DNA of 64,000 nucleotides from Escherichia coli (GTDB taxonomy: Bacteria; Pseudomonadota; Gammaproteobacteria; Enterobacterales; Enterobacteriaceae), in assembly GCF_030384885.1 (NCBI RefSeq), contig NZ_CP128613.1; one strand, given 5' to 3'. The notes beneath the pieces are model-generated. The model saw only the letters and a program-made list of their open reading frames with translations. It ran no database searches and was not told where the DNA came from. Below, one piece after another: positions 1-16,860 of this stretch; the first letter of the stretch is position 1; each line of letters opens with the position of its first letter. The position numbers and the translations under genes were made by a program.

Positions 1-1979
1 ATATCATCCAGAACAGCGGTGCCGCTCTCCAGACGAGCACGGCTAACGGTATTGAAATCAGCGGTACTCACCAGTACGGCACCTTTTCCATTGCCGGAAA
101 TTTAGCGACCAATGCGTTGCTGGAAAATGGCGGTAATTTATTGGTATTAGCAGGTACCGAAGCTCGCGATTCCACGGTTGGCAACGGTGGGGCAATGCAA
201 AACCTGGGTCAGGACTTCGCCACAAAGGTTAATTCCGGTGGGCAATATACCCTTGGTCGGTCAAAAGATGAGTTTCAGGCTCTGGCCCGGGCAGAAGATC
301 TACAGGTCGCTGGCGGGACGGCAATCGTCTACGCAGGTACGCTGGCGGATGCATCGGTCAGTGGCGCGACAGGAAGCCTGTCGTTAATGACGCCACGGGA
401 TAATGTTACGCCAGTTAAACTTGAAGGGGTGGTCCGGATTACCGATAGCGCGACATTAACTATCGGAAATGGCGTCGATACGACGCTTGCCGACCTGACG
501 GCTGCCAGCCGGGGCAGTGTCTGGCTTAACAGCAATAATTCCTGTGCAGGCACCAGCAACTGCGAATATAGAGTAAACAGTTTGCTCCTCAACGACGGTG
601 ATGTTTATTTATCAGCACAAACAGCAGCGCCTGCCACAACTAACGGTATCTACAATACGCTGACCACCAGTGAACTTTCCGGCAGCGGTAATTTCTACCT
701 GCATACCAACGTTGCAGGCTCCCGGGGCGATCAACTGGTCGTCAACAACAACGCCACTGGCAATTTTAAAATCTTTGTTCAGGATACCGGCGTCAGCCCT
801 CAGTCTGACGACGCGATGACGCTGGTGAAAACAGGGGGAGGGGATGCTTCGTTTACGCTGGGTAATACCGGCGGTTTCGTTGATCTTGGGACCTATGAGT
901 ATGTCCTGAAAAGCGACGGCAACAGCAACTGGAACCTGACCAATGATGTCAAACCCAACCCGGATCCCAACCCAAATCCGAAACCGGATCCAAAACCAGA
1001 CCCAAAACCGGATCCGAAACCAGACCCGACTCCCGATCCAACGCCGACACCCGTCCCGGAGAAACGCATCACGCCTTCTACGGCAGCCGTACTCAATATG
1101 GCAGCAACATTACCGTTGGTCTTTGATGCTGAGCTAAACAGTATTCGCGAGCGGTTGAACATAATGAAAGCGAGTCCACACAACAATAATGTCTGGGGGA
1201 CGACGTATAACACCCGTAATAATGTCACCACCGATGCGGGTGCCGGGTTTGAGCAGACGCTGACCGGAATGACGGTGGGGATCGATAGCCGTAATGATAT
1301 TCCTGAGGGGATTGCGACGCTGGGCGCTTTTATGGGTTATTCCCATTCACATATCGGTTTTGATCGTGGAGGACATGGCAGTGTGGGCAGTTATTCTCTG
1401 GGGGGCTATGTCAGCTGGGAACATGAAAGTGGTTTCTATCTGGACGGTATCGTGAAGCTGAACCGCTTTGAAAGTAACGTAGCCGGTAAAATGAGCAGCG
1501 GTGGAGCCGCCAACGGCAGTTATCGCAGCAACGGGCTGGGTGGTCATCTTGAAACCGGGATGCGATTTACCGATGGTAACTGGAACCTGACGCCGTATGC
1601 ATCGTTAACGGGGTTCACCGCTGATAACCCCGAATATCATTTATCCAATGGTATGGAATCGAAATCAGTCGATACCCGCAGTATATATCGTGAACTGGGC
1701 GCAACGCTGAGTTACAACATGCGTCTGGGGAACGGCATGGAAGTTGAGCCGTGGCTGAAGGCGGCTGTGCGCAAAGAATTTGTCGATGATAACCGGGTGA
1801 AAGTGAATAATGACGGTAATTTTGTCAATGATTTGTCGGGCAGACGTGGAATATACCAGGCAGGTATTAAAGCCTCATTCAGCAGTTCGTTAAGCGGGCA
1901 TCTCGGGGTAGGGTATAGCAATGGTGCTGGTTTGGAATCCCCGTGGAACGCGGTGGCTGGTGTGAACTGGTCGTTCTGA
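1..1979 (+). CDS. AIDA-I/Ag43-type autotransporter adhesin, C-terminal part (5' end lies outside the window)
   Basis: Frame is open from position 3 with no upstream stop; Gly/Thr/Asn-rich passenger repeats, a Pro-rich linker (PNPNPKPDPKPDPKPDPTPDP), and a C-terminal beta-barrel domain ending in NWSF (aromatic terminal residue typical of autotransporters). Confidence 0.8.
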   Translation, partial: IIQNSGAALQTSTANGIEISGTHQYGTFSIAGNLATNALLENGGNLLVLAGTEARDSTVGNGGAMQNLGQDFATKVNSGGQYTLGRSKDEFQALARAEDLQVAGGTAIVYAGTLADASVSGATGSLSLMTPRDNVTPVKLEGVVRITDSATLTIGNGVDTTLADLTAASRGSVWLNSNNSCAGTSNCEYRVNSLLLNDGDVYLSAQTAAPATTNGIYNTLTTSELSGSGNFYLHTNVAGSRGDQLVVNNNATGNFKIFVQDTGVSPQSDDAMTLVKTGGGDASFTLGNTGGFVDLGTYEYVLKSDGNSNWNLTNDVKPNPDPNPNPKPDPKPDPKPDPKPDPTPDPTPTPVPEKRITPSTAAVLNMAATLPLVFDAELNSIRERLNIMKASPHNNNVWGTTYNTRNNVTTDAGAGFEQTLTGMTVGIDSRNDIPEGIATLGAFMGYSHSHIGFDRGGHGSVGSYSLGGYVSWEHESGFYLDGIVKLNRFESNVAGKMSSGGAANGSYRSNGLGGHLETGMRFTDGNWNLTPYASLTGFTADNPEYHLSNGMESKSVDTRSIYRELGATLSYNMRLGNGMEVEPWLKAAVRKEFVDDNRVKVNNDGNFVNDLSGRRGIYQAGIKASFSSSLSGHLGVGYSNGAGLESPWNAVAGVNWSF

Positions 1980-2139: not shown

Positions 2140-2183
2140 TGGTGGGCTGGCGGGAGTTGAACCCGCGTCCGAAATTCCTACAT
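2140..2183. repeat. Direct repeat of the ssrA 3' end (att site of the ssrA-integrated island)
   Basis: tggtgggctggcgggagttgaacccgcgtccgaaattcctacat matches the terminal 44 nt of ssrA at 16498-16541 with one mismatch. Confidence 0.85.
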
Positions 2184-2346: not shown

Positions 2347-3114
2347 TTATTGTTTTATTATCTTAACGTGCGCCGTTCCTCCATTGACTTTTTCGAAATC
2401 TTGGAACAAGGCAGGGGCATCTTGAGTTACAATATCGTAAAGTTTTTCTGAAACTGTTCTCATTTCATAGTCACCCTGTATTGCTCCTCTCATTTCGAAG
2501 AAGTGTCGAATTGCGCGAGCATTTGCTGTGACGATTATTTTTGTCTCGGTTGCATTAGGCAATATAGAGCGAGAAGCGCTTCTTAAGGCCCGCATTTTTT
2601 CTTTTTTGTTCTCATACGATTGGTTTTCACGGATTTTTTTCAAGGATTGCTTATAAAAATCCAGACTACTTTCAATATGTTGGCACCATGACTTAAACAA
2701 TTCTGGGTCATTTTTTACTTCTATAGGGGCTACGAATTCAGCATCGGATTCATCATGATACTGTTGGGATAACTGGCTATATGAAAAACCAGCTCTATGC
2801 CGAACTAGCTGGTGTGTAAATGCACGAGATACCCCAGTAATTAAAAAGGTCCAGTTCAAATGTTCTAAGACACTTTCATGCCCTTGAATAATTAAATTGT
2901 TGATATATTGACTTGTAGTCCGTGGAGACTGCTTATCCTCTCCAAAAGACATATAACATAGCCTGCCAGCGGCCTCTACCAGAAGCTCAGCTTCGGTCGC
3001 CTGCCCTTTGCGAACCCATTGCAATGATGATGTGTTTAAAAAATCATCAAAAACATTACTTTCAAATGAAGGGTGTGATATGCATTTTACTGATAAATCA
3101 GAGATTTTTATCAT
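2347..3114 (-). CDS. ThyX-like flavin-dependent thymidylate synthase homolog (divergent)
   Basis: 255 aa. Contains EHLNWTF...HQLVRHRAGFSYSQLSQQY, matching the ThyX signature (RHR followed by a conserved Ser) as recalled from Thermotoga ThyX, plus an N-terminal AAGRLCYMSF block. It has a one-residue insertion after RHR and Gln where the SxRY Arg is expected. Start codon lies 2 nt after the upstream gene's stop; SD gggag. Confidence 0.7.
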   Translation of the reverse strand: MIKISDLSVKCISHPSFESNVFDDFLNTSSLQWVRKGQATEAELLVEAAGRLCYMSFGEDKQSPRTTSQYINNLIIQGHESVLEHLNWTFLITGVSRAFTHQLVRHRAGFSYSQLSQQYHDESDAEFVAPIEVKNDPELFKSWCQHIESSLDFYKQSLKKIRENQSYENKKEKMRALRSASRSILPNATETKIIVTANARAIRHFFEMRGAIQGDYEMRTVSEKLYDIVTQDAPALFQDFEKVNGGTAHVKIIKQ

Positions 3115-3116
3115 TT

Positions 3117-3902
3117 TTACTCCCGTATAGCTTTTGGGGTGCTTACTTTAGCATCAACCTTTGGTTCGTTTGATTTAGCATTTTTTAGTAATTCAACGGT
3201 GCTTTTTAGGCTATTTATTTCATTTTGTTGAACTTTTATTGTTAATTCAAGATCTTTTGTACTACTGACATTACTGGATACTATTTGAAATAAGAAAGGA
3301 ATTGCTAGGGTTATCAACGTTAGCATTAAGGCTGCTATCGCAATTATAAAGCCAGTTTTTTTCGCAATGATTTTATTGATTTCTTTCGGAAGTCGTTTAT
3401 CAAGTCCTGCAAAATCCTTTCCCATTCTAGAAAGTTGATCATCATCCAATTTATTTACGATTTTTCCTTGGTAACCTTTAGTCGGTATTATTGTTTTAAA
3501 TAATAACATTCGGGCTACTGCTGAATTTTGTGTCAATGAGAATGGTTCTTTTGACATATTTACAAGATATATTGAAATTATGCCATTATATCCAGGGTCA
3601 ATATGCCCTGGATTCGTCATGATAATTCCATTTTTTGATAGTGTGTTTCTTGGAAATATTACACCAGCTAAATTTTTTGCAAGTTGGAATTTTTCATTTA
3701 ACTCTAATATTACAGTTTCCCCTGGCATCAGGATATGGTTGTTACGTGTTTTTTTATTGTCTTGACAGTCTGGTATATGTATTGTTTTTACAGAGAGATC
3801 AATGCTTGCAGATTGAACTTTAAATGTTCCATTTAATACCGTTAATGGATCAAAAATGTTGCCTCGCTGAATTTCATCATTGATTTCTATTTCAGACAGC
3901 AT
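3117..3902 (-). CDS. dCTP deaminase/dUTPase-fold protein with C-terminal transmembrane helix and coiled-coil tail
   Basis: 261 aa. N-terminal ~140 aa carry Dcd-family motifs (SIDLSV; LMPGETVILE; GHIDPGYNGIISIYLVN; LTQNSAVARMLLF), comparable to the E. coli Dcd IDPGW-G region. The C-terminal ~110 aa contain a 22-residue hydrophobic segment (GFIIAIAALMLTLITLAIPFLF) followed by a heptad-like polar stretch. Confidence 0.7.
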   Translation of the reverse strand: MLSEIEINDEIQRGNIFDPLTVLNGTFKVQSASIDLSVKTIHIPDCQDNKKTRNNHILMPGETVILELNEKFQLAKNLAGVIFPRNTLSKNGIIMTNPGHIDPGYNGIISIYLVNMSKEPFSLTQNSAVARMLLFKTIIPTKGYQGKIVNKLDDDQLSRMGKDFAGLDKRLPKEINKIIAKKTGFIIAIAALMLTLITLAIPFLFQIVSSNVSSTKDLELTIKVQQNEINSLKSTVELLKNAKSNEPKVDAKVSTPKAIRE

Positions 3903-3928: not shown

Positions 3929-4942
3929 TTATAAATTAGCCAGAGGGTTTTTTATTACTGCATCTTCAAGATGCTCTGGGGAAAAATGTGCATAAATCAT
4001 AGTCATTTTTATATCAGAGTGGCCTAAAATATCTCGTAAAACCAAAATATTACCACCATTCATCATAAAATGGCTGGCGAATGTATGGCGCAGAACGTGA
4101 GTGCATTGGCCCTCTGGTAACTCAATGTCAGCTCGCTTTACTGCTCGTTCAAAGGCTTTTCTGCAAGGAGTGAATAACTTCCCTCTGTTCTTAGGGAGTT
4201 CGTCATACAGATCCTGAGATATCGGCACGGTACGGTTTTTCTTGCCCTTAGTCTTGGTATAGGTGATCCGGTATTTCGATAACTGATGGCCCTGCAGATT
4301 TTCGGCTTCACTCCAGCGCGCGCCGGTGGCCAGGCATATTTTTGTAATTAAAAGTAGACTGGGGCTTTGAGAATCAGCACAGGCATCCAGCAGACGTTTA
4401 ATTTCTTCCGGGGTCAGGAACGACAGTTCACCCTCAGCAATTTTAAATGTTGGCAGCCCGGCAAGCGGATTGGGGGCTGACCAGTGGCCCAACTTTTTCA
4501 GTGTGCCAAAAACAGATGATAGGTTGCGCTGTTCAAGGTTTACAGTGCGGGGCTTAACGGGCGACATAAGCGTGCCCTCTTCATTTCGCACTTCACCTTT
4601 TAGCCGCGCTTCTCGGTATTTAGTAAAATCACCGGCTGTCAGCTCTGAGGCGATGGGATCGCCTAGACCATTACAGATAATTCTAAGTTTCGCCATGAGG
4701 CGCTTGGGGTCTGCGAGTGTTTGACCATACAGGGAATACCACTGCTCAATTAATTCTGATAGGTGTCGCCGATCTTCCTTTTCCCCCAGCCATGGCTTTT
4801 TGTTCACTTCTTCCATTGTGAAGCTTTCAAAAGCAATGGCTTCGCCTTTCGTAGCAAATTGCTTACGCACGCGCTTGCCATTGCGTCCATGGGGATAGCA
4901 CTCGCACAACCATTTACCGTTTGGCTGTTTTCTGACAGTCAT
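3929..4942 (-). CDS. int: Phage integrase, tyrosine recombinase (P2/186-type)
   Basis: 337 aa. Catalytic residues in conserved context: ATGARWSE (Arg), HVLRHTF (His-x-x-Arg), MIYAHF (Tyr). Directly downstream of the cI-like gene as in the coliphage 186 lysogeny operon. Confidence 0.85.
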   Translation of the reverse strand: MTVRKQPNGKWLCECYPHGRNGKRVRKQFATKGEAIAFESFTMEEVNKKPWLGEKEDRRHLSELIEQWYSLYGQTLADPKRLMAKLRIICNGLGDPIASELTAGDFTKYREARLKGEVRNEEGTLMSPVKPRTVNLEQRNLSSVFGTLKKLGHWSAPNPLAGLPTFKIAEGELSFLTPEEIKRLLDACADSQSPSLLLITKICLATGARWSEAENLQGHQLSKYRITYTKTKGKKNRTVPISQDLYDELPKNRGKLFTPCRKAFERAVKRADIELPEGQCTHVLRHTFASHFMMNGGNILVLRDILGHSDIKMTMIYAHFSPEHLEDAVIKNPLANL

Positions 4943-4944
4943 GT

Positions 4945-5577
4945 TTAGATACTCTTTATTACTTTGACTGCACGCCCAATAACTTCCACATCATCAGTAG
5001 AGCACTCGAAAGACGCTTCATCTTGATTTACTACAATCTTATTGCCGGGAATCCGCATGATTTTTGCAACAATAATCATTCCATCAATATTGATAAGCCA
5101 GAATCCATTGCTGACCTGTTTAATTGATTTATCGATGAGATAACAATTAGTAGGGGTTTCTAAGAACATCAATTCTTCATAATCTGCAGGTAATATGCTG
5201 TGGTCTAGGAAAATCTCTTCATCAATACTGAGTTGTCCATTCTCCAGGGTTCCTTTAGGAATAGCTGGAGTTATGAGTTTGGATAACGGTTTAATTGCTT
5301 GTTTGTTCTCATTATGAGAACTTTTCTCAGGCTCAGCTCCTCCTTTCATGCTTCCCTGTCCTGTAGCTAACCAAAGCAACGAAACACCGGTTTCTAGTGC
5401 GCACTGAATTATCCAGTCAGCAGGAAAGCTGTCACGTAACACTCTGTTTGCCATAGTGCTTTTTGAGACATTCAGGTGCTCGCTTAATGCCTGCTTAGTT
5501 GTGAATCCATAAGCCTCAAGCAGCCTTTCAATAGCTGCCTTACCTCCCGTATCGGAACCCATTCTGATGTTTAACAT
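4945..5577 (-). CDS. cI: Phage CI-type repressor (186 cI-like)
   Basis: N-terminal HTH region (LEAYGF...CALETGVSLLWLATGQG) resembles the coliphage 186 CI N-terminal domain; divergent from the apl-like gene. Confidence 0.65.
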   Translation of the reverse strand: MLNIRMGSDTGGKAAIERLLEAYGFTTKQALSEHLNVSKSTMANRVLRDSFPADWIIQCALETGVSLLWLATGQGSMKGGAEPEKSSHNENKQAIKPLSKLITPAIPKGTLENGQLSIDEEIFLDHSILPADYEELMFLETPTNCYLIDKSIKQVSNGFWLINIDGMIIVAKIMRIPGNKIVVNQDEASFECSTDDVEVIGRAVKVIKSI

Positions 5578-7845: not shown

Positions 7846-8072
7846 TGGCTGATGCAATGGATCTCGTACAGCAGCGCGTTGAAGAAGAACGCCAACGCCA
7901 TATCCGTGCTGCCCGTGCCAAAACGCCGGGCGTGTCCCGCGTGCTTTGCATTGAGTGTGAAGCGCCAATTCCGCCAGCACGCCGCCGTGCCATTCCGGGT
8001 GTGCAGCTTTGCATTACCTGTCAGGAAATCGCAGAGCTGAAAGGCAAACATTACAACGGAGGTGCTGTATGA
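7845..8072 (+). CDS. TraR/DksA-family C4 zinc-finger protein (phage)
   Basis: CIECEAPIPPARRRAIPGVQLCITC: two CxxC pairs with the spacing typical of TraR/DksA zinc fingers, common in P2/186-like early regions. Confidence 0.65.
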   Translation: MADAMDLVQQRVEEERQRHIRAARAKTPGVSRVLCIECEAPIPPARRRAIPGVQLCITCQEIAELKGKHYNGGAV

Positions 8073-8926
8073 GCACCATCCTGAAATGGGCGGGAAATAA
8101 AACTGCCATAATGTCCGAACTGAAAAAACATCTTCCTGCTGGCCCGCGACTGGTTGAACCTTTCGCGGGTTCCTGTGCTGTGATGATGGAGACGGATTAT
8201 CCCAGCTATCTGGTTGCGGATATTAATCCTGATTTAATCAACCTCTATAAAAAGGTTGCCGCTGATTGTGAATCGTTTATATCTCGCGCCAGAGTTTTAT
8301 TTGAGATCGCAAACAGGGAGGTGGCTTATTACAACATAAGGCAGGAGTTTAATTACTCAACTGAAATTACTGATTTCATGAAAGCGGTATATTTCCTGTA
8401 TCTCAATCGTCACGGTTACCGTGGTTTATGTCGCTATAACAAGAGCGGGCATTTCAACATTCCCTACGGTAATTATAAAAATCCGTATTTCCCTGAAAAA
8501 GAAATTCGCGCATTTGCAGAAAAGGCCCAGCGAGCAACGTTTATCTGCGCCAGCTTTGATGAAACGCTGGCGATGTTGAAGGCGGGGGATGTGGTGTATT
8601 GCGATCCGCCGTATGACGGTACGTTTTCCGGCTATCACACTGACGGCTTCACTGAAGATGACCAGTATCACCTGGCATCTGTTCTTGAACATCGGTCATC
8701 AGAAGGACATCCGGTCATTGTTTCTAACAGTGACACATCCCTGATCCGTTCGCTGTATCGCAATTTTACTCACCACTACATCAAGGCAAAACGCAGCATC
8801 GGTGTGGCAGCTGGCGAGGGTAAATCAGCAACAGAAATCATTGCTGTTTCCGGGCCGCGCTGCTGGGTGGGATTTGATTATTCGCGTGGCGTGGATAGTT
8901 CTGCCGTGTACGGAGTACGTGCATGA
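8069..8926 (+). CDS. dam: DNA adenine methyltransferase (Dam-like, phage-encoded)
   Basis: N-terminal [11 protein letters not shown]...EPFAGS (AdoMet-binding motif) and the catalytic DPPY motif (VYCDPPYDG); start overlaps the stop of the upstream ORF. Confidence 0.8.
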
Positions 8927-13038: not shown

Positions 13039-15375
13039 ATGATTGAAGAGGTAGTTATTGACAAAGTAGGCTCATATAATGGCCCTACTCAGCTTTTACA
13101 TGGGCTTTCTAAATTTAACTATTTATATGGAGCTAATGGTGCAGGTAAAACAACTATAAGTAAAATTATTAATGACCCTGAACAATATCCAACATGTCCG
13201 ATTAAATGGAAAAATAATATATCTTTAATAAGCTACGTATATAATAAAGATTTTGTTGAAAGAAATTTTAGTCAAGATAAAATTAAAGGTGTATTTACCC
13301 TTGGTAGCGATCTTAAGGAGGATGAAGAGAAATTAATATCTCTTGAAGAAGAAAAAAATAAGCTAATAGAATCTATTATAGCAAAGGAAAAGCTAATAGA
13401 TGGTGGTGATAATATATTAGGCGTTGTTAAACAAATCGAAGACCATGAAAAATCTTTTAAAGATTCATGTTGGAAGCAAAAAGTAAAACATGATAATGTG
13501 TTCTCAAAGGCTTTTGAGGGATTAAGGAATAGTAGTGAAAAATTTAAAGCTAGAGTGTTGGCTGAGTATGAAAATAACACATCAGAAGTTTGCTCAATAG
13601 CAGAGCTAATTGAGAAAGCAAAAATTGTTTTTTCTACTGAATTGACATCACATGTATCAATTACAATTCCATCCTTCAATGGGATAGATGATATTTTGAG
13701 TAGGGAGATTTGGAGTGAGCGTATTCTAGGGAAAAAAGACGTTAGTGTTTCAGACTTAATTACAATGCTCAATAACAGTGATTGGGTTAAGGAAGGTTTA
13801 ACATATTTCAGTAAATCTAATCCCAAGTGCCCATTCTGCCAGCAGGATGTAAATGATAATATATTTGATAATCTATCATCATATTTTGATAAAACATATG
13901 AGTTAAAAAAAAGAGAAATCGATGCATTGGTTTTACAATATGAACATCAACTTAATAATATCTTGCAGGCGATAGATGATATAAGGGCGATTAAATCTCC
14001 ATTCATAAATTATGAAGTGTTTGAGGATAAGGCTAAGATAGTATTATCTGAATTAAACAAGAATTTTGAATTGGCAAAAAATAAACGCAATTTTTTAAGT
14101 GAATCAGTTCATTTTAGTGACTTAAGTGAAGTTGTTGATGATTTTATTTCTTTTTTGAATGATTCAAATCTATTGATAGATAATAATAACAAAATACACA
14201 GTAATAGAAAGGTAGAGGCTAGTAATCTTTCTAATCAGATATGGGCATATATCGTAAAGGTGGAGTTAAAGTCTGAAATAACTTCTTACCGTAGCGAATC
14301 TGATAAATTTAATAGGAAGTTACAAGGGCTTAAATCTGGGTTAGAGGAAGACAAAAAGAAGTTAATGTTAAATGCTTCGGCTATTGAGGCAATTGAGTCT
14401 AATAAAACCAGTACTCTTCCAACTATTACAAAAATTAACAAGATTCTGGATTCTTATGGCTTCAAAAATTTTTACTTAAAACCCTCCGAAGATAAAAAGC
14501 ATTATATGATAGTGAGAGATAGTGGAGATAATGCTCGTACAACCCTTAGCGAGGGAGAAAAGACATTTATCACTTTTTTGTATTTTTATAGCCTTGTTAG
14601 AGGGAGTGATAATGCATCAGGTGTTTTAGATGATCGTGTTGTAGTATTTGATGATCCAATTTCAAGTTTAGATAGTGATATTCTGTTTATTGTAAGTTCG
14701 TTGATTAAAGATTTAATGGAGGATGTTCGTAAGGATGAAGGAAATATTAAGCAAATTATATTCCTTACACATAATATTTATTTTCATAAAGAGTTGACTT
14801 TTAATACTAAAAGATCCGGTAATCAAGCAATGAAAGAGGAGACTTTTTGGATTGTAAGGAAAAAAGGGAAGGTCTCATATCTTGAAAAGTGCGAATCAAA
14901 CCCAATAAAAACGTCTTATGATTTGCTCTGGTGCGAATTGAGAAGAACAGATATTAATAATAATACTATACAAAATACAATGCGAAGGATTTTGGAGAAT
15001 TACTTTAAGATATTAGGTGGGATGGATATTAGGAAGCTTGAATGTCATTTTTATGGTGATGAAAAAATCATATTTAAATCTTTAGTGTCATGGATTAATG
15101 ATGGTTCTCATTTTGCAGGTGATGATCTTTATATGAATTTAGATACGGAGTCTGTGCAAAAATATTTAATTGTTTTTCAGAAGATATTTGAGTGTAGTGA
15201 GCATACTGCCCATTACAAAATGATGATGGGTGAGTTTTATAGACCGTTAAATGAGTCACTTCATCTACAAGATGAGTTTGATATTGATGATAGTGCGAAT
15301 GATGAGTATGCTTCGTCAAAAATTGAGATAGAAGATGGAATAAACACATCTCTACATAGTAATACATATTTGTAA
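13039..15375 (+). CDS. RloC/PrrC-like ATPase with CxxC zinc hook (putative anticodon nuclease / abortive-infection protein)
   Basis: 778 aa, very AT-rich. N-terminal Walker A GANGAGKTT; long coiled-coil region containing CPFC; D-loop/Walker B-like VVVFDDPISSLDSD; C-terminal region with RRILENYF and downstream His residues, reminiscent of the PrrC/RloC Arg-Glu-His nuclease motif as recalled. Confidence 0.55.
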   Translation: MIEEVVIDKVGSYNGPTQLLHGLSKFNYLYGANGAGKTTISKIINDPEQYPTCPIKWKNNISLISYVYNKDFVERNFSQDKIKGVFTLGSDLKEDEEKLISLEEEKNKLIESIIAKEKLIDGGDNILGVVKQIEDHEKSFKDSCWKQKVKHDNVFSKAFEGLRNSSEKFKARVLAEYENNTSEVCSIAELIEKAKIVFSTELTSHVSITIPSFNGIDDILSREIWSERILGKKDVSVSDLITMLNNSDWVKEGLTYFSKSNPKCPFCQQDVNDNIFDNLSSYFDKTYELKKREIDALVLQYEHQLNNILQAIDDIRAIKSPFINYEVFEDKAKIVLSELNKNFELAKNKRNFLSESVHFSDLSEVVDDFISFLNDSNLLIDNNNKIHSNRKVEASNLSNQIWAYIVKVELKSEITSYRSESDKFNRKLQGLKSGLEEDKKKLMLNASAIEAIESNKTSTLPTITKINKILDSYGFKNFYLKPSEDKKHYMIVRDSGDNARTTLSEGEKTFITFLYFYSLVRGSDNASGVLDDRVVVFDDPISSLDSDILFIVSSLIKDLMEDVRKDEGNIKQIIFLTHNIYFHKELTFNTKRSGNQAMKEETFWIVRKKGKVSYLEKCESNPIKTSYDLLWCELRRTDINNNTIQNTMRRILENYFKILGGMDIRKLECHFYGDEKIIFKSLVSWINDGSHFAGDDLYMNLDTESVQKYLIVFQKIFECSEHTAHYKMMMGEFYRPLNESLHLQDEFDIDDSANDEYASSKIEIEDGINTSLHSNTYL

Positions 15376-16497: not shown

Positions 16498-16860
16498 TGG
16501 TGGAGCTGGCGGGAGTTGAACCCGCGTCCGAAATTCCTACATCCTCGGTACTACATGCTTAGTCAGTCTTTACATTCGCTTGCCAGCTGCGGACGGACAC
16601 GCCACTAACAAACTAGCCTGATTAAGTTTTAACGCTTCAACCCCAGGCAGGGCTTCCACGCGATCTCTTTTGGGTTTGACCTCTCTTGATCCCCGTCCTA
16701 AGAGCGGAGGCTAGGGAGAGAGGGCTCTAAGCAGGTTATTAAGCTGCTAAAGCGTAGTTTTCGTCGTTTGCGACTATTTTTTGCGGCTTTTTACGAGGCC
16801 AACCGCCCCTCGGCATGCACCTTGGGTTTCGCAAATCCCGTCGAATCCAGAATCAGCCCC
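16498..16860 (-). ncRNA. ssrA: tmRNA (SsrA)
   Basis: The reverse complement reads ggggctgattctggattcgacggg...gttcaactcccgccagctccacca, the E. coli tmRNA sequence, 363 nt. Confidence 0.95.

Follow-up and report, generated by a model that had tools for sequence, protein, structure and literature searches.

A mobile Escherichia coli gene pair joins a membrane-anchored Dcd/dUTPase-fold protein to an atypical ThyX and is a candidate pyrimidine-nucleotide conflict module

A 64,000-nucleotide window of the Escherichia coli contig NZ_CP128613.1 (the window being the whole stretch of DNA analyzed here) carries, inside a prophage remnant, a 1.56-kb cassette of two genes, which encode a Dcd/dUTPase-fold protein with a membrane anchor and a coiled-coil tail (DcdTM) and a flavin adenine dinucleotide (FAD)-dependent thymidylate synthase of a distinct clade (ThyX-Q). 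The pair is mobile and previously undescribed, its nearest published counterparts being the defensive dCTP deaminases and the DS-4 system, and it would be classed with the nucleotide-targeting accessory or defence modules as well as with the Dcd/dUTPase and ThyX families. Our favoured reading, which we hold to be credible if still a little short of probable, is that DcdTM and ThyX-Q form an accessory module for conflict with phages or between mobile elements, with pyrimidine deoxynucleotides as its target, in which ThyX-Q would be the enzyme and DcdTM a membrane sensor or regulator. This reading draws on the pattern of lost and retained residues in DcdTM, the linker helix with its invariant D163-F164 and its R170, the coupled ThyX, the exchange of ThyX for a ThyA-type enzyme at one locus, the mobility of the cassette and the genes found in its neighbourhood. 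Coordinates of the features are collected in Table 1.

The interval 3117-3902 is exactly one minus-strand open reading frame (ORF), stop codon included, with an AGGA Shine-Dalgarno sequence 7 nt upstream of its ATG. The encoded protein matches the Pfam families DCD (PF22769; E-value 1.7e-13) and dUTPase (PF00692; E-value 2.1e-12, residues 52-137), and PHROG 1663 covers residues 2-241 with an E-value of 4.7e-28; since this last match spans the tail, the long form already falls within a phage-associated family. An identical gene in E. coli TUM12355 bears the RefSeq name "dCTP deaminase domain-containing protein". The AlphaFold2 (AF2) model, built on an alignment of 36 homologues (mean predicted local distance difference test [pLDDT] 82), contains a Dcd fold over residues 1-150 (pLDDT >90), a helix at 154-164, an unbroken helix at 166-244 and a disordered C-terminal end (residues 246-261; pLDDT <50). 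Used as a Foldseek query, the domain matched Dcd structures with E-values from 6e-12 to 5e-9, the top matches being the bifunctional dCTP deaminase-dUTPases 4xjc and 2qlp (6e-12), and E. coli Dcd (1xs1), the dTTP-bound structures 2qxx and 4a6a, and the archaeal dUTPases 8y1w, 9ln3 and 2zdc were also among the matches. Pfam, PHROG 1663, Foldseek and AF2 thus agree on the Dcd/dUTPase beta-barrel fold that an earlier note, made from the sequence of this DNA, had claimed, and by homology to these enzymes DcdTM is probably a trimer. With the housekeeping Dcd and bifunctional enzymes (E. coli 1XS1, Mycobacterium tuberculosis 2QLP, B. halodurans 4XJC) it shares, besides the barrel, a Dcd-type N-terminus, the NxGxIDPG[FY]xG hairpin, the Glu70 equivalent and Asn115. 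It departs from them in lacking the catalytic Glu, the GRSS motif and the C-terminal arm, in scoring under the TIGR02274 cut-off, in being mobile, rare, low in GC and linked to ThyX, and in carrying about 110 additional residues with a transmembrane (TM) helix and a coiled coil.

These additional residues are a consistent trait of the protein. The segment GFIIAIAALMLTLITLAIPFLF is the sole hydrophobic stretch of DcdTM, with a Kyte-Doolittle 19-mer maximum of 2.65, and because AF2 places it within the continuous helix 166-244 it is not a buried core strand; the alternative that it is a buried element of the fold was ruled out by the model, which shows it beyond the domain, on a long helix exposed to solvent. 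It is followed by a tail of about 55 residues, made of approximately four coiled-coil heptads (DLELTIKVQQNEINSLKSTVELLKN) and a disordered end. The earlier note had read a TM helix and a heptad-like tail from the sequence and had proposed an AlphaFold model as a check; the hydropathy peak, the predicted helix and the conserved layout in relatives all bear the anatomy out, and the model, now run, leaves the hydrophobic segment outside the fold core. Its statement that such a tail is absent from canonical Dcd also holds, given that the solved chains have 161-193 residues and the TIGR02274 model 180 positions. A tail common to housekeeping Dcd proteins was ruled out on this basis, the solved chains and the curated model ending at ~160-193 residues.

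Among relatives, a word-indexed search yielded 48 clusters of 222-324 residues with the same layout, in which D35, G61, E70, P84, T96-H100, D102-G104, G107, N115-M116 and D163-F164 are invariant and which also share the TM segment and a poorly conserved heptad tail. An exhaustive whole-length profile search returned 477 representatives of 50%-identity clusters at E-values ≤1e-30, and the best 150 of these matches all extend to profile positions ~200-260, nearly all of them to ~225-260. A TM-grade segment lies 86-103 residues after the motif in 54 of 56 homologues (median tail, 58 residues), and the same segment is present in 144 of 147 representatives of 50%-identity clusters, which argues that the architecture is not a product of chance. 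Between domain and membrane lies a linker helix in which D163-F164 is family-invariant and R170 nearly so, and whose end is rich in lysine and arginine (positive-inside). Across the 56 homologues these two residues number 3.4 before the TM segment and 1.7 after it, and this roughly twofold excess suggests an N-in topology, with the domain in the cytoplasm and the tail outside. In the structural model, the linker helix would occupy the place where Dcd proteins and dUTPases put their active-site lid and would run on into the TM helix. Searches for the cassette in other collections gave a mixed picture: tblastn with DcdTM against GenBank phages matched the Dcd/dUTPase core alone (coverage ≤53%), with no match in T4, and blastn of the PLSDB plasmids gave no match to the cassette; prophage contigs of IMG/VR do carry it.

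DcdTM is doubtful as a canonical dCTP deaminase or dUTPase, because the catalytic Glu is absent, the phosphate motifs are degenerate and the scores lie under the NCBIfam cut-offs. In the HMMER alignment with 4xjc, the strand of the catalytic Glu, ITLELFN, is paired with ISIYLVN, and Tyr112 (nt 3567-3569) stands at the position of E. coli Glu138; among 147 family representatives this position holds Thr in 120, Cys in 14, Tyr in 5, Ala in 4, Ser in 2, Val in 2 and Glu in none. GRSSVGRLG of 4xjc is paired with PRNTLSKNG (FPRNTLSKNG in the window protein), the GRSS...R motif (E. coli Arg110, Ser111 and Arg115) is missing, and the family consensus there is FPP[S/A/N/T]. RRICQL of 4xjc is paired with SAVARM, with loss of the R..Q of dUTPase motif IV (VARM/VATL in the family); dUTPase motif II is degenerate, and the glycine-rich arm of motif V is replaced by the helix that leads into the membrane. 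dUTPase motif III is kept as GHIDPGYNG, part of the NPGHIDPGYNG hairpin (residues 97-107; nt 3582-3614), with D102, P103 and G107 invariant and G104 and Y105 nearly so, and D35 in SIDLS, a candidate for the motif I Asp in a segment outside the stretches aligned to solved dUTPases, is invariant in the family. What the family retains, then, is the hairpin that holds base and deoxyribose, NPGH[IV]DPG[YF]xG, and what is gone are the catalytic base of the deaminase and most contacts to the triphosphate. The score on the dCTP deaminase model TIGR02274 is 56.2 bits against a cut-off of 92.8, and the dUTPase (dut) models of NCBIfam give 41-45 bits against cut-offs of ~102.

These data bear on the view that DcdTM is a bona fide dCTP deaminase or dUTPase that is merely localized or regulated through its membrane tether. 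The fold, the IDPGY motif and the RefSeq name speak for it, but with the catalytic Glu in none of the 147 family members, with GRSS, R..Q and motif V elements missing and with both sets of scores below their cut-offs, we find it barely credible. The interpretation offered in the earlier note has accordingly fared unevenly: the non-housekeeping character and the appended TM helix and tail stand, and the idea that the protein converts nucleotides, as a dCTP deaminase or dUTPase would, has become doubtful on the grounds just given. That note also overlooked what is the key to the locus, namely, the obligate ThyX partner.

The ATG of thyX lies 2 nt after the DcdTM stop codon and its GGGAG Shine-Dalgarno sequence lies within the DcdTM 3′ end, a spacing by which the two genes are to be regarded as a translationally coupled operon. 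ThyX-Q scores 154.8 bits on TIGR02170 (cut-off, 87.9) and aligns to M. tuberculosis ThyX (3gwc/2af6) with an E-value of 7e-42 across residues 24-242; the M. tuberculosis stretch RHR-HFSYSQLSQRY corresponds to RHRAGFSYSQLSQQY in the window protein (nt 2758-2802). Canonical ThyX (M. tuberculosis Rv2754c, 2AF6/3GWC; Thermotoga maritima TM0449) is thus matched end to end and the curated model is passed, but ThyX-Q differs in having Gln118 in place of Arg107 of M. tuberculosis (Arg90 of T. maritima), in one residue inserted after RHR, in being preceded by DcdTM and in being accessory cargo even in genomes that have ThyA. Compared with the full ThyX signature, RHRxxS(x)4SxRY, it deviates at the dUMP-site Arg and by the insertion, and the remaining signature residues are kept; equivalents of M. 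tuberculosis Arg87, RHR, Gln103, Ser105, Tyr108, Arg172 and Arg199 are all retained. The Gln and the one-residue insertion were found in all 23 partner ThyX proteins and in 120 of the 120 best clusters of the clade. The replaced Arg has been listed among the conserved residues that stabilize dUMP (PMC6514825) and has been proposed to tune the catalytic Tyr (PMC11940539).

Our look-ups of the pairing covered Citrobacter-type, Pseudomonas aeruginosa, Shewanella and metagenomic homologues, eight IMG/VR prophage contigs, three arbitrarily picked distant representatives and 23 loci from a scan of one genome per species (Pseudomonas, Alteromonas, Neiella, Terriglobia/Acidobacteria, Mycobacterium, Rhizobiales, Bradyrhizobium, Hoeflea, Verrucomicrobia and Deltaproteobacteria). 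ThyX is present at 32 of the 34 distinct DcdTM loci having downstream sequence, directly adjacent at 28 (often with a 4-nt overlap) and within 2-3 kb at the other 4, and three reverse look-ups that started from ThyX homologues led to the same pairing with DcdTM. The paired loci belong to Gamma-, Alpha- and Deltaproteobacteria, Acidobacteria, Verrucomicrobia and Mycobacterium. The sole locus with ample downstream sequence and neither type of thymidylate synthase nearby is in a metagenome-assembled genome of Myxococcota (L035; DcdTM at 7995-8891). A second departure is a high-GC phage contig of IMG/VR (L056, 7865-10508), on which DcdTM is accompanied by a ThyA-type homologue and a PfkB-family kinase that replace ThyX; the ThyA-type homologue carries Asn177->Asp, His147->Leu and a 13-residue insertion. 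Because this locus swaps ThyX for a ThyA-type enzyme, DcdTM appears to be tied to pyrimidine C5 chemistry and not to the ThyX fold itself. In all 32 pairs compared, ThyX is the more conserved partner (median identity, 57% vs 42% for the DcdTM domain), and in pairwise comparisons the tail is barely alignable between homologues. A slowly evolving ThyX, a faster DcdTM and an unalignable tail make a pattern typical of a sensor-plus-enzyme pair.

At four loci (L022, 779-4304; L015; L024; L033), three of them assigned to Acidobacteria, the pair is part of a four-gene unit composed of a MutT-like NUDIX protein (~255 residues), a protein of ~325 residues, DcdTM and ThyX-Q. The ~325-residue protein, with the motif LWDVW.H..HH..A.AE, gave no match in Pfam, NCBIfam or PADLOC, its hit to MazG being nonsignificant (E-value 5.2).

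Such accessory genes are relevant to a metabolic explanation, which we consider possible but unlikely: that the cassette is a mobile thymidylate-supply module, that is, a metabolic moron. DcdTM would then be a divergent, membrane-tethered dUTP/dCTP pyrophosphatase that yields dUMP, and ThyX-Q would turn dUMP into dTMP without using reduced folate via dihydrofolate reductase, giving the element or the bacterium that carries it a larger or safer supply of dTTP, for instance, when the element replicates, under folate stress or in the presence of an antifolate. ThyX-Q scores above its curated cut-off and keeps RHR, the Ser, the Tyr and the other Arg residues; DcdTM retains the motif III hairpin with its Asp and Tyr as well as the Asp of SxDL; and deaminase-less archaeal dUTPases of the Dcd family exist. 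The phage contig with the ThyA-type enzyme likewise joins DcdTM to a thymidylate synthase homologue and a kinase, and phage T4, too, joins a dCTPase/dUTPase to thymidylate synthase. The additional NUDIX protein, a MutT-like deoxynucleoside triphosphate (dNTP) pyrophosphatase, cuts both ways, in that it adds nucleotide metabolism to the acidobacterial variants and at the same time suggests that DcdTM is not itself the pyrophosphatase. Against the supply of thymidylate stand also the loss of motifs II, IV and V, with which dUTPases bind the triphosphate, the presence of two parts that have no obvious metabolic purpose (the TM helix and the extracytoplasmic coiled coil), the sparse and patchy distribution with frequent defence-gene neighbours, and the fact that E. 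coli and Pseudomonas already possess ThyA, Dcd and Dut of their own.

In the window, the cassette belongs to a 186/P2-like prophage remnant of ~14.3 kb, which is enclosed by a 44-nt direct repeat (2140-2183 and 16499-16542) with an exact 35-nt core, for which the number expected by chance is 0; the intact ssrA (tmRNA) gene predicted by ARAGORN occupies 16498-16860 on the minus strand. The remnant holds int, cI, an apl-like gene, cII, Dam, gene A and a portal fragment, and its late genes are missing. The first att copy (2140-2183) and int flank the cassette, which shares its strand with both cI and int; int lies directly upstream of DcdTM across a gap of 26 nt. A terminator scan of this gap found no terminator-like site, and DcdTM has no strong promoter of its own. 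Given the shared strand, the short gap, the lack of a terminator-like site and of a strong own promoter, it is likely that the lysogenic cI-int transcript runs through into DcdTM and thyX.

Several observations mark the operon as accessory and mobile. Its GC content is 31-39% against ~50% in the flanks, and it was found in 1 of 5,426 complete E. coli genomes. Related E. coli prophages, with int and cI ~92% identical, carry in the same slot an unrelated protein of 222 or 407 residues, which makes the interval between att (2140-2183) and int (3929-4942) a site of variable cargo. The order int-DcdTM-ThyX is kept in 8 IMG/VR prophage contigs, and prophages of this collection with near-identical integrases hold DcdTM alleles that are 50-65% identical to that of the window, a divergence that points to cassette exchange. 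The DcdTM-ThyX-Q operon is horizontally mobile cargo. The low GC, the int-att slot, the rarity among E. coli genomes and the frequent defence-gene neighbours described below also agree with the proposal of the earlier note that the gene does not serve housekeeping. A preprint ranks the interval between integrase and att among the minor defence hotspots of P2-like phages and places 3% of their defence systems there (bioRxiv 10.64898/2026.02.27.708500). The alternative cargo at this slot consists of hypothetical proteins (L002, 3271-3939, 222 residues; L003, 3303-4526, 407 residues) with no match in PADLOC or NCBIfam, which may be further uncharacterized cargo of the int-att hotspot; as they gave no matches, the defence character of the slot rests on the literature and on the other contexts of the cassette. 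In the classical P2 hotspot after gene A, the same remnant carries a gene for a 778-residue AAA ATPase (13039-15375, plus strand) that matches the phage-defence candidate PDC-S06 of PADLOC nearly end to end (E-value 1.5e-266) and thus represents a second putative defence gene in the remnant. Outside the remnant, a C-terminal portion of an autotransporter adhesin (YpjA/EhaD type) is encoded at positions 117-1979 (plus strand); it has a linker of proline-rich PDPKPDP repeats and ends just before the att copy.

Elsewhere, the cassette adjoins TraC within an integrative and conjugative element (ICE) and is also found beside an integrase and a gene-A-type replication protein. Of the ~22 loci whose surroundings were screened with PADLOC or Pfam, at least 12 have recognized defence genes no more than ~8 kb away, which is an association only; the individual neighbours are listed in Table 1. 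A further, indirect hint comes from DefensePredictor, in whose Table S3 "neighbors" (PMC13092281) a "FAD-dependent thymidylate synthase" at ±1 has a mean summed Shapley additive explanations (SHAP) value of +0.73 (n = 27), that is, ThyX neighbours push towards a defence call; the value for "dCTP deaminase" neighbours in the same work is ~0.25 (PMC13092281).

In three unrelated genomes, nucleases directly flank the cassette (L021, 9774-11006; L005, 2346-4292; L020, 6457-7563). The first is a methyl-directed restriction enzyme (E-value 4e-150), the second an NsnA of the GmrSD_N type, and the third a REase_II-like protein that is a candidate for an EVE-like domain. This arrangement may be a coincidence or may reflect a functional link to base modification.

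Such a link would be expected if the pair belonged to a pathway for modified pyrimidines, an explanation we judge to be very unlikely. Here, DcdTM would supply dCMP or dUMP and its partner would add a group at C5, giving noncanonical pyrimidine nucleotides that protect the DNA of the element or that tag or poison the DNA of invaders, for instance, as a target of modification-dependent nucleases encoded nearby. The ThyA-type partner on the phage contig, with Asn177->Asp and His147->Leu, fits this idea, since N177D in E. coli thymidylate synthase (N229D in the Lactobacillus casei enzyme) shifts substrate preference towards dCMP, and the corresponding residue of T4 dCMP hydroxymethylase is Asp; so do the PfkB-family kinase that follows it, the modification-dependent nucleases next to the cassette at L005, L021 and L020 (the last with its candidate EVE-like domain) and the precedent of DS-4, which shows that an enzyme of the thymidylate synthase family can belong to a validated defence system. 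However, no second ThyA-type example was found, any defence island is apt to contain type IV enzymes, and modified DNA is not known from phages of the P2/186 type. Moreover, ThyX-Q retains the equivalent of M. tuberculosis Arg199, a conserved dUMP-site residue, which argues for unchanged recognition of dUMP (uracil) in the main ThyX-Q clade.

Returning to the favoured reading of a conflict module, its working could be envisaged as follows. ThyX-Q would be the catalytic engine, carrying out C5-methylation of dUMP or a close variant of it, and DcdTM would be a membrane-anchored, probably trimeric, nucleotide-binding sensor or regulatory subunit of ThyX-Q. As the hairpin for base and deoxyribose is kept and the triphosphate-binding residues are lost, the ligand of DcdTM would probably be a monophosphate, such as the substrate or the product of ThyX. 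The lid helix passes without a break into the TM helix, and through it a signal from the envelope could reach the nucleotide site, or a signal from that site the envelope. It is tempting to extend this into a new class of membrane-coupled, nucleotide-based immune module, in which a catalytically dead, inner-membrane-spanning Dcd trimer would link what happens at the envelope (the adsorption of a phage, the entry of DNA or damage in the periplasm that the coiled coil would sense) to the flavin-dependent C5-methylase. In this way, the module would flip the pyrimidine dNMP/dNTP pool or make an unusual pyrimidine nucleotide, so that the invader would fail to replicate or its DNA would be open to neighbouring modification-dependent nucleases. 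The loss of phosphate contacts in both partners would then mirror a shared, nonstandard ligand. We regard this extended version as decidedly improbable.

Much of the same evidence has a bearing on a nucleotide-gated membrane effector of abortive infection, which we think quite unlikely. In such a scheme, infection would shift the activity of ThyX-Q or the level of its substrate or product, the pseudoenzyme Dcd domain would act as the receptor, and the ligand would drive a TM/coiled-coil trimer to harm the membrane, a logic like that of the TM effectors of CBASS and Pycsar. The catalytic Glu and the phosphate motifs are gone and the nucleoside-binding hairpin is invariant, Dcd domains bind their substrate dCTP and their inhibitor dTTP at one site, the helix at the lid position is continuous with the TM helix, and the loci have contexts of a defence type. 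Yet a protein that has a single TM helix in each chain and lacks any pore-forming or lytic domain would make a poor effector, the cassette seems to do no harm when expressed constitutively in the lysogen, ligand binding by DcdTM is putative, and the very high conservation of ThyX-Q suggests a role beyond setting a signal.

Several points weigh against a conflict module of the kind we favour. About 10 of the ~22 loci examined have no recognized defence neighbour, and at several loci the cassette is a two-gene islet between housekeeping genes. PADLOC 2.0.0 returned 0 families for DcdTM, ThyX and int, which means that the pair is neither a catalogued nor a candidate system in that release, and full-text searches of the literature, most subscription papers excepted, found no description of a Dcd-like TM protein with ThyX and no link of such a pair to defence. 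The nearly complete set of catalytic and dUMP/FAD residues in ThyX-Q would suit a plain metabolic role equally well. The position of DcdTM among phage structural genes at L056 suggests a benefit to the phage there, and the loss of triphosphate-binding residues could also reflect that DcdTM binds no nucleotide. Finally, an AlphaFold run on the cytoplasmic part of DcdTM fused through a 40-residue linker to ThyX, with a paired alignment of 31 rows, gave two folded halves (predicted template modelling score 0.52) and no interdomain information, and is counted neither way.

Among known systems, the defensive dCTP deaminase of Tal et al. and AvcD are reportedly soluble, single-gene, zinc-dependent enzymes of the cytidine deaminase fold with a kinase-like domain. 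Together with the defensive dGTPase of Tal et al., they share with the DcdTM pair the theme of pyrimidine deoxynucleotides and a location in defence islands or mobile elements, and the idea of dNTP starvation or imbalance that underlies nucleotide-depletion systems is common to them and to our reading of DcdTM-ThyX-Q. DcdTM differs from the defensive dCTP deaminases in its unrelated, dUTPase-like fold, the missing deaminase residue, the membrane anchor, the ThyX partner and the lack of a PADLOC match. Phage T4 offers a parallel of another kind: its gp56 dCTPase/dUTPase acts with dCMP hydroxymethylase and thymidylate synthase in a dNTP-synthesis complex, a pairing of a pyrimidine-dNTP handler with a C5 transferase that the layout of L056 resembles. 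The T4 enzymes, however, are soluble early proteins of a lytic phage, whereas DcdTM is carried mainly by a temperate prophage, an ICE and defence islands. DS-4, a validated anti-phage system of E. coli, contains a thymidylate synthase, a kinase, a base-hypermodification protein and a TIR protein (PMC13092281), and it resembles the DcdTM pair in using an enzyme of the thymidylate synthase family in immunity. It is unlike the pair in its ThyA fold (PF00303), its five-gene unit, its TIR effector and the lack of a Dcd-like or TM protein, and the accessions of the window genes are absent from the tables of that paper (PMC13092281). As a match for the DcdTM-ThyX pair, DS-4 was therefore set aside on account of its ThyA-fold enzyme and TIR effector.

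Table 1. Features of the cassette and the prophage remnant in the window, and defence-related genes near the cassette in the window and at other loci (L numbers)
Sequence	Feature	Position	Strand	Basis
Window	DcdTM gene; 261 residues, ATG start, stop codon 3117-3119	3117..3902	minus	ORF, Pfam DCD/dUTPase, PHROG 1663, homologous clusters
Window	Cytoplasmic Dcd/dUTPase-fold domain, residues 1-150 (predicted location)	3453..3902	minus	AF2 pLDDT >90, Foldseek 4xjc/2qlp/1xs1
Window	Linker ("lid-position") helix, residues 151-183	3354..3452	minus	Family alignments, AF2 helices 154-164 and 166 onward, Lys/Arg bias
Window	TM helix GFIIAIAALMLTLITLAIPFLF, residues 184-205	3288..3353	minus	Kyte-Doolittle, conserved position, AF2
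Window	Predicted extracytoplasmic tail, residues 206-261	3120..3287	minus	AF2 helix to residue 244, heptad score across the family
Window	ThyX-Q, FAD-dependent thymidylate synthase of a distinct clade	2347..3114	minus	TIGR02170, alignment to M. tuberculosis ThyX 3gwc/2af6
Window	Tyrosine integrase, 186/P2-like	3929..4942	minus	ORF, NCBIfam recombinase matches, RefSeq annotation
Window	CI-type repressor	4945..5577	minus	ORF; RefSeq "phage repressor protein CI"
Window	att repeat, partial copy of the ssrA 3′ end, end of the remnant	2140..2183	.	35-nt exact match, alignment
Window	Second att copy, within the 3′ end of the intact tmRNA gene	16499..16542	.	ARAGORN, repeat match, alignment
Window	Match to PDC-S06, in the P2 hotspot after gene A			
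L005	Complete NsnABC			
L006	DpdF/GajB-like giant helicase and PDC-M54A-like NTPase			
L018	Viperin (pVip)			
L020	REase_II-like protein			
L021	Methyl-directed restriction enzyme			
L023	CARF6 and mad8			
L024	PDC-S41			
L028	RecD-like PDC-M16A			
L030	Type III methylase and NERD/UvrD helicase			
L044	Lamassu LmuB			
L058	Type I restriction-modification system			

For the protein families concerned, the analysis has consequences for annotation: "dCTP deaminase" proteins of ~250-300 residues that are of the DcdTM type cannot be canonical deaminases, and a ThyX clade is now defined that is large, extends across phyla and has a changed substrate loop. This matters because antibacterial drugs are aimed at ThyX and because a "thyX" call in a genome need not always signify housekeeping thymidylate synthesis. 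Should the pair indeed act in defence, the coupling of a ThyX-type synthase to a membrane-spanning pseudo-deaminase would be an unexplored principle in nucleotide-targeting immunity, and DcdTM would be the first dUTPase/Dcd fold to serve as a membrane sensor or regulator.

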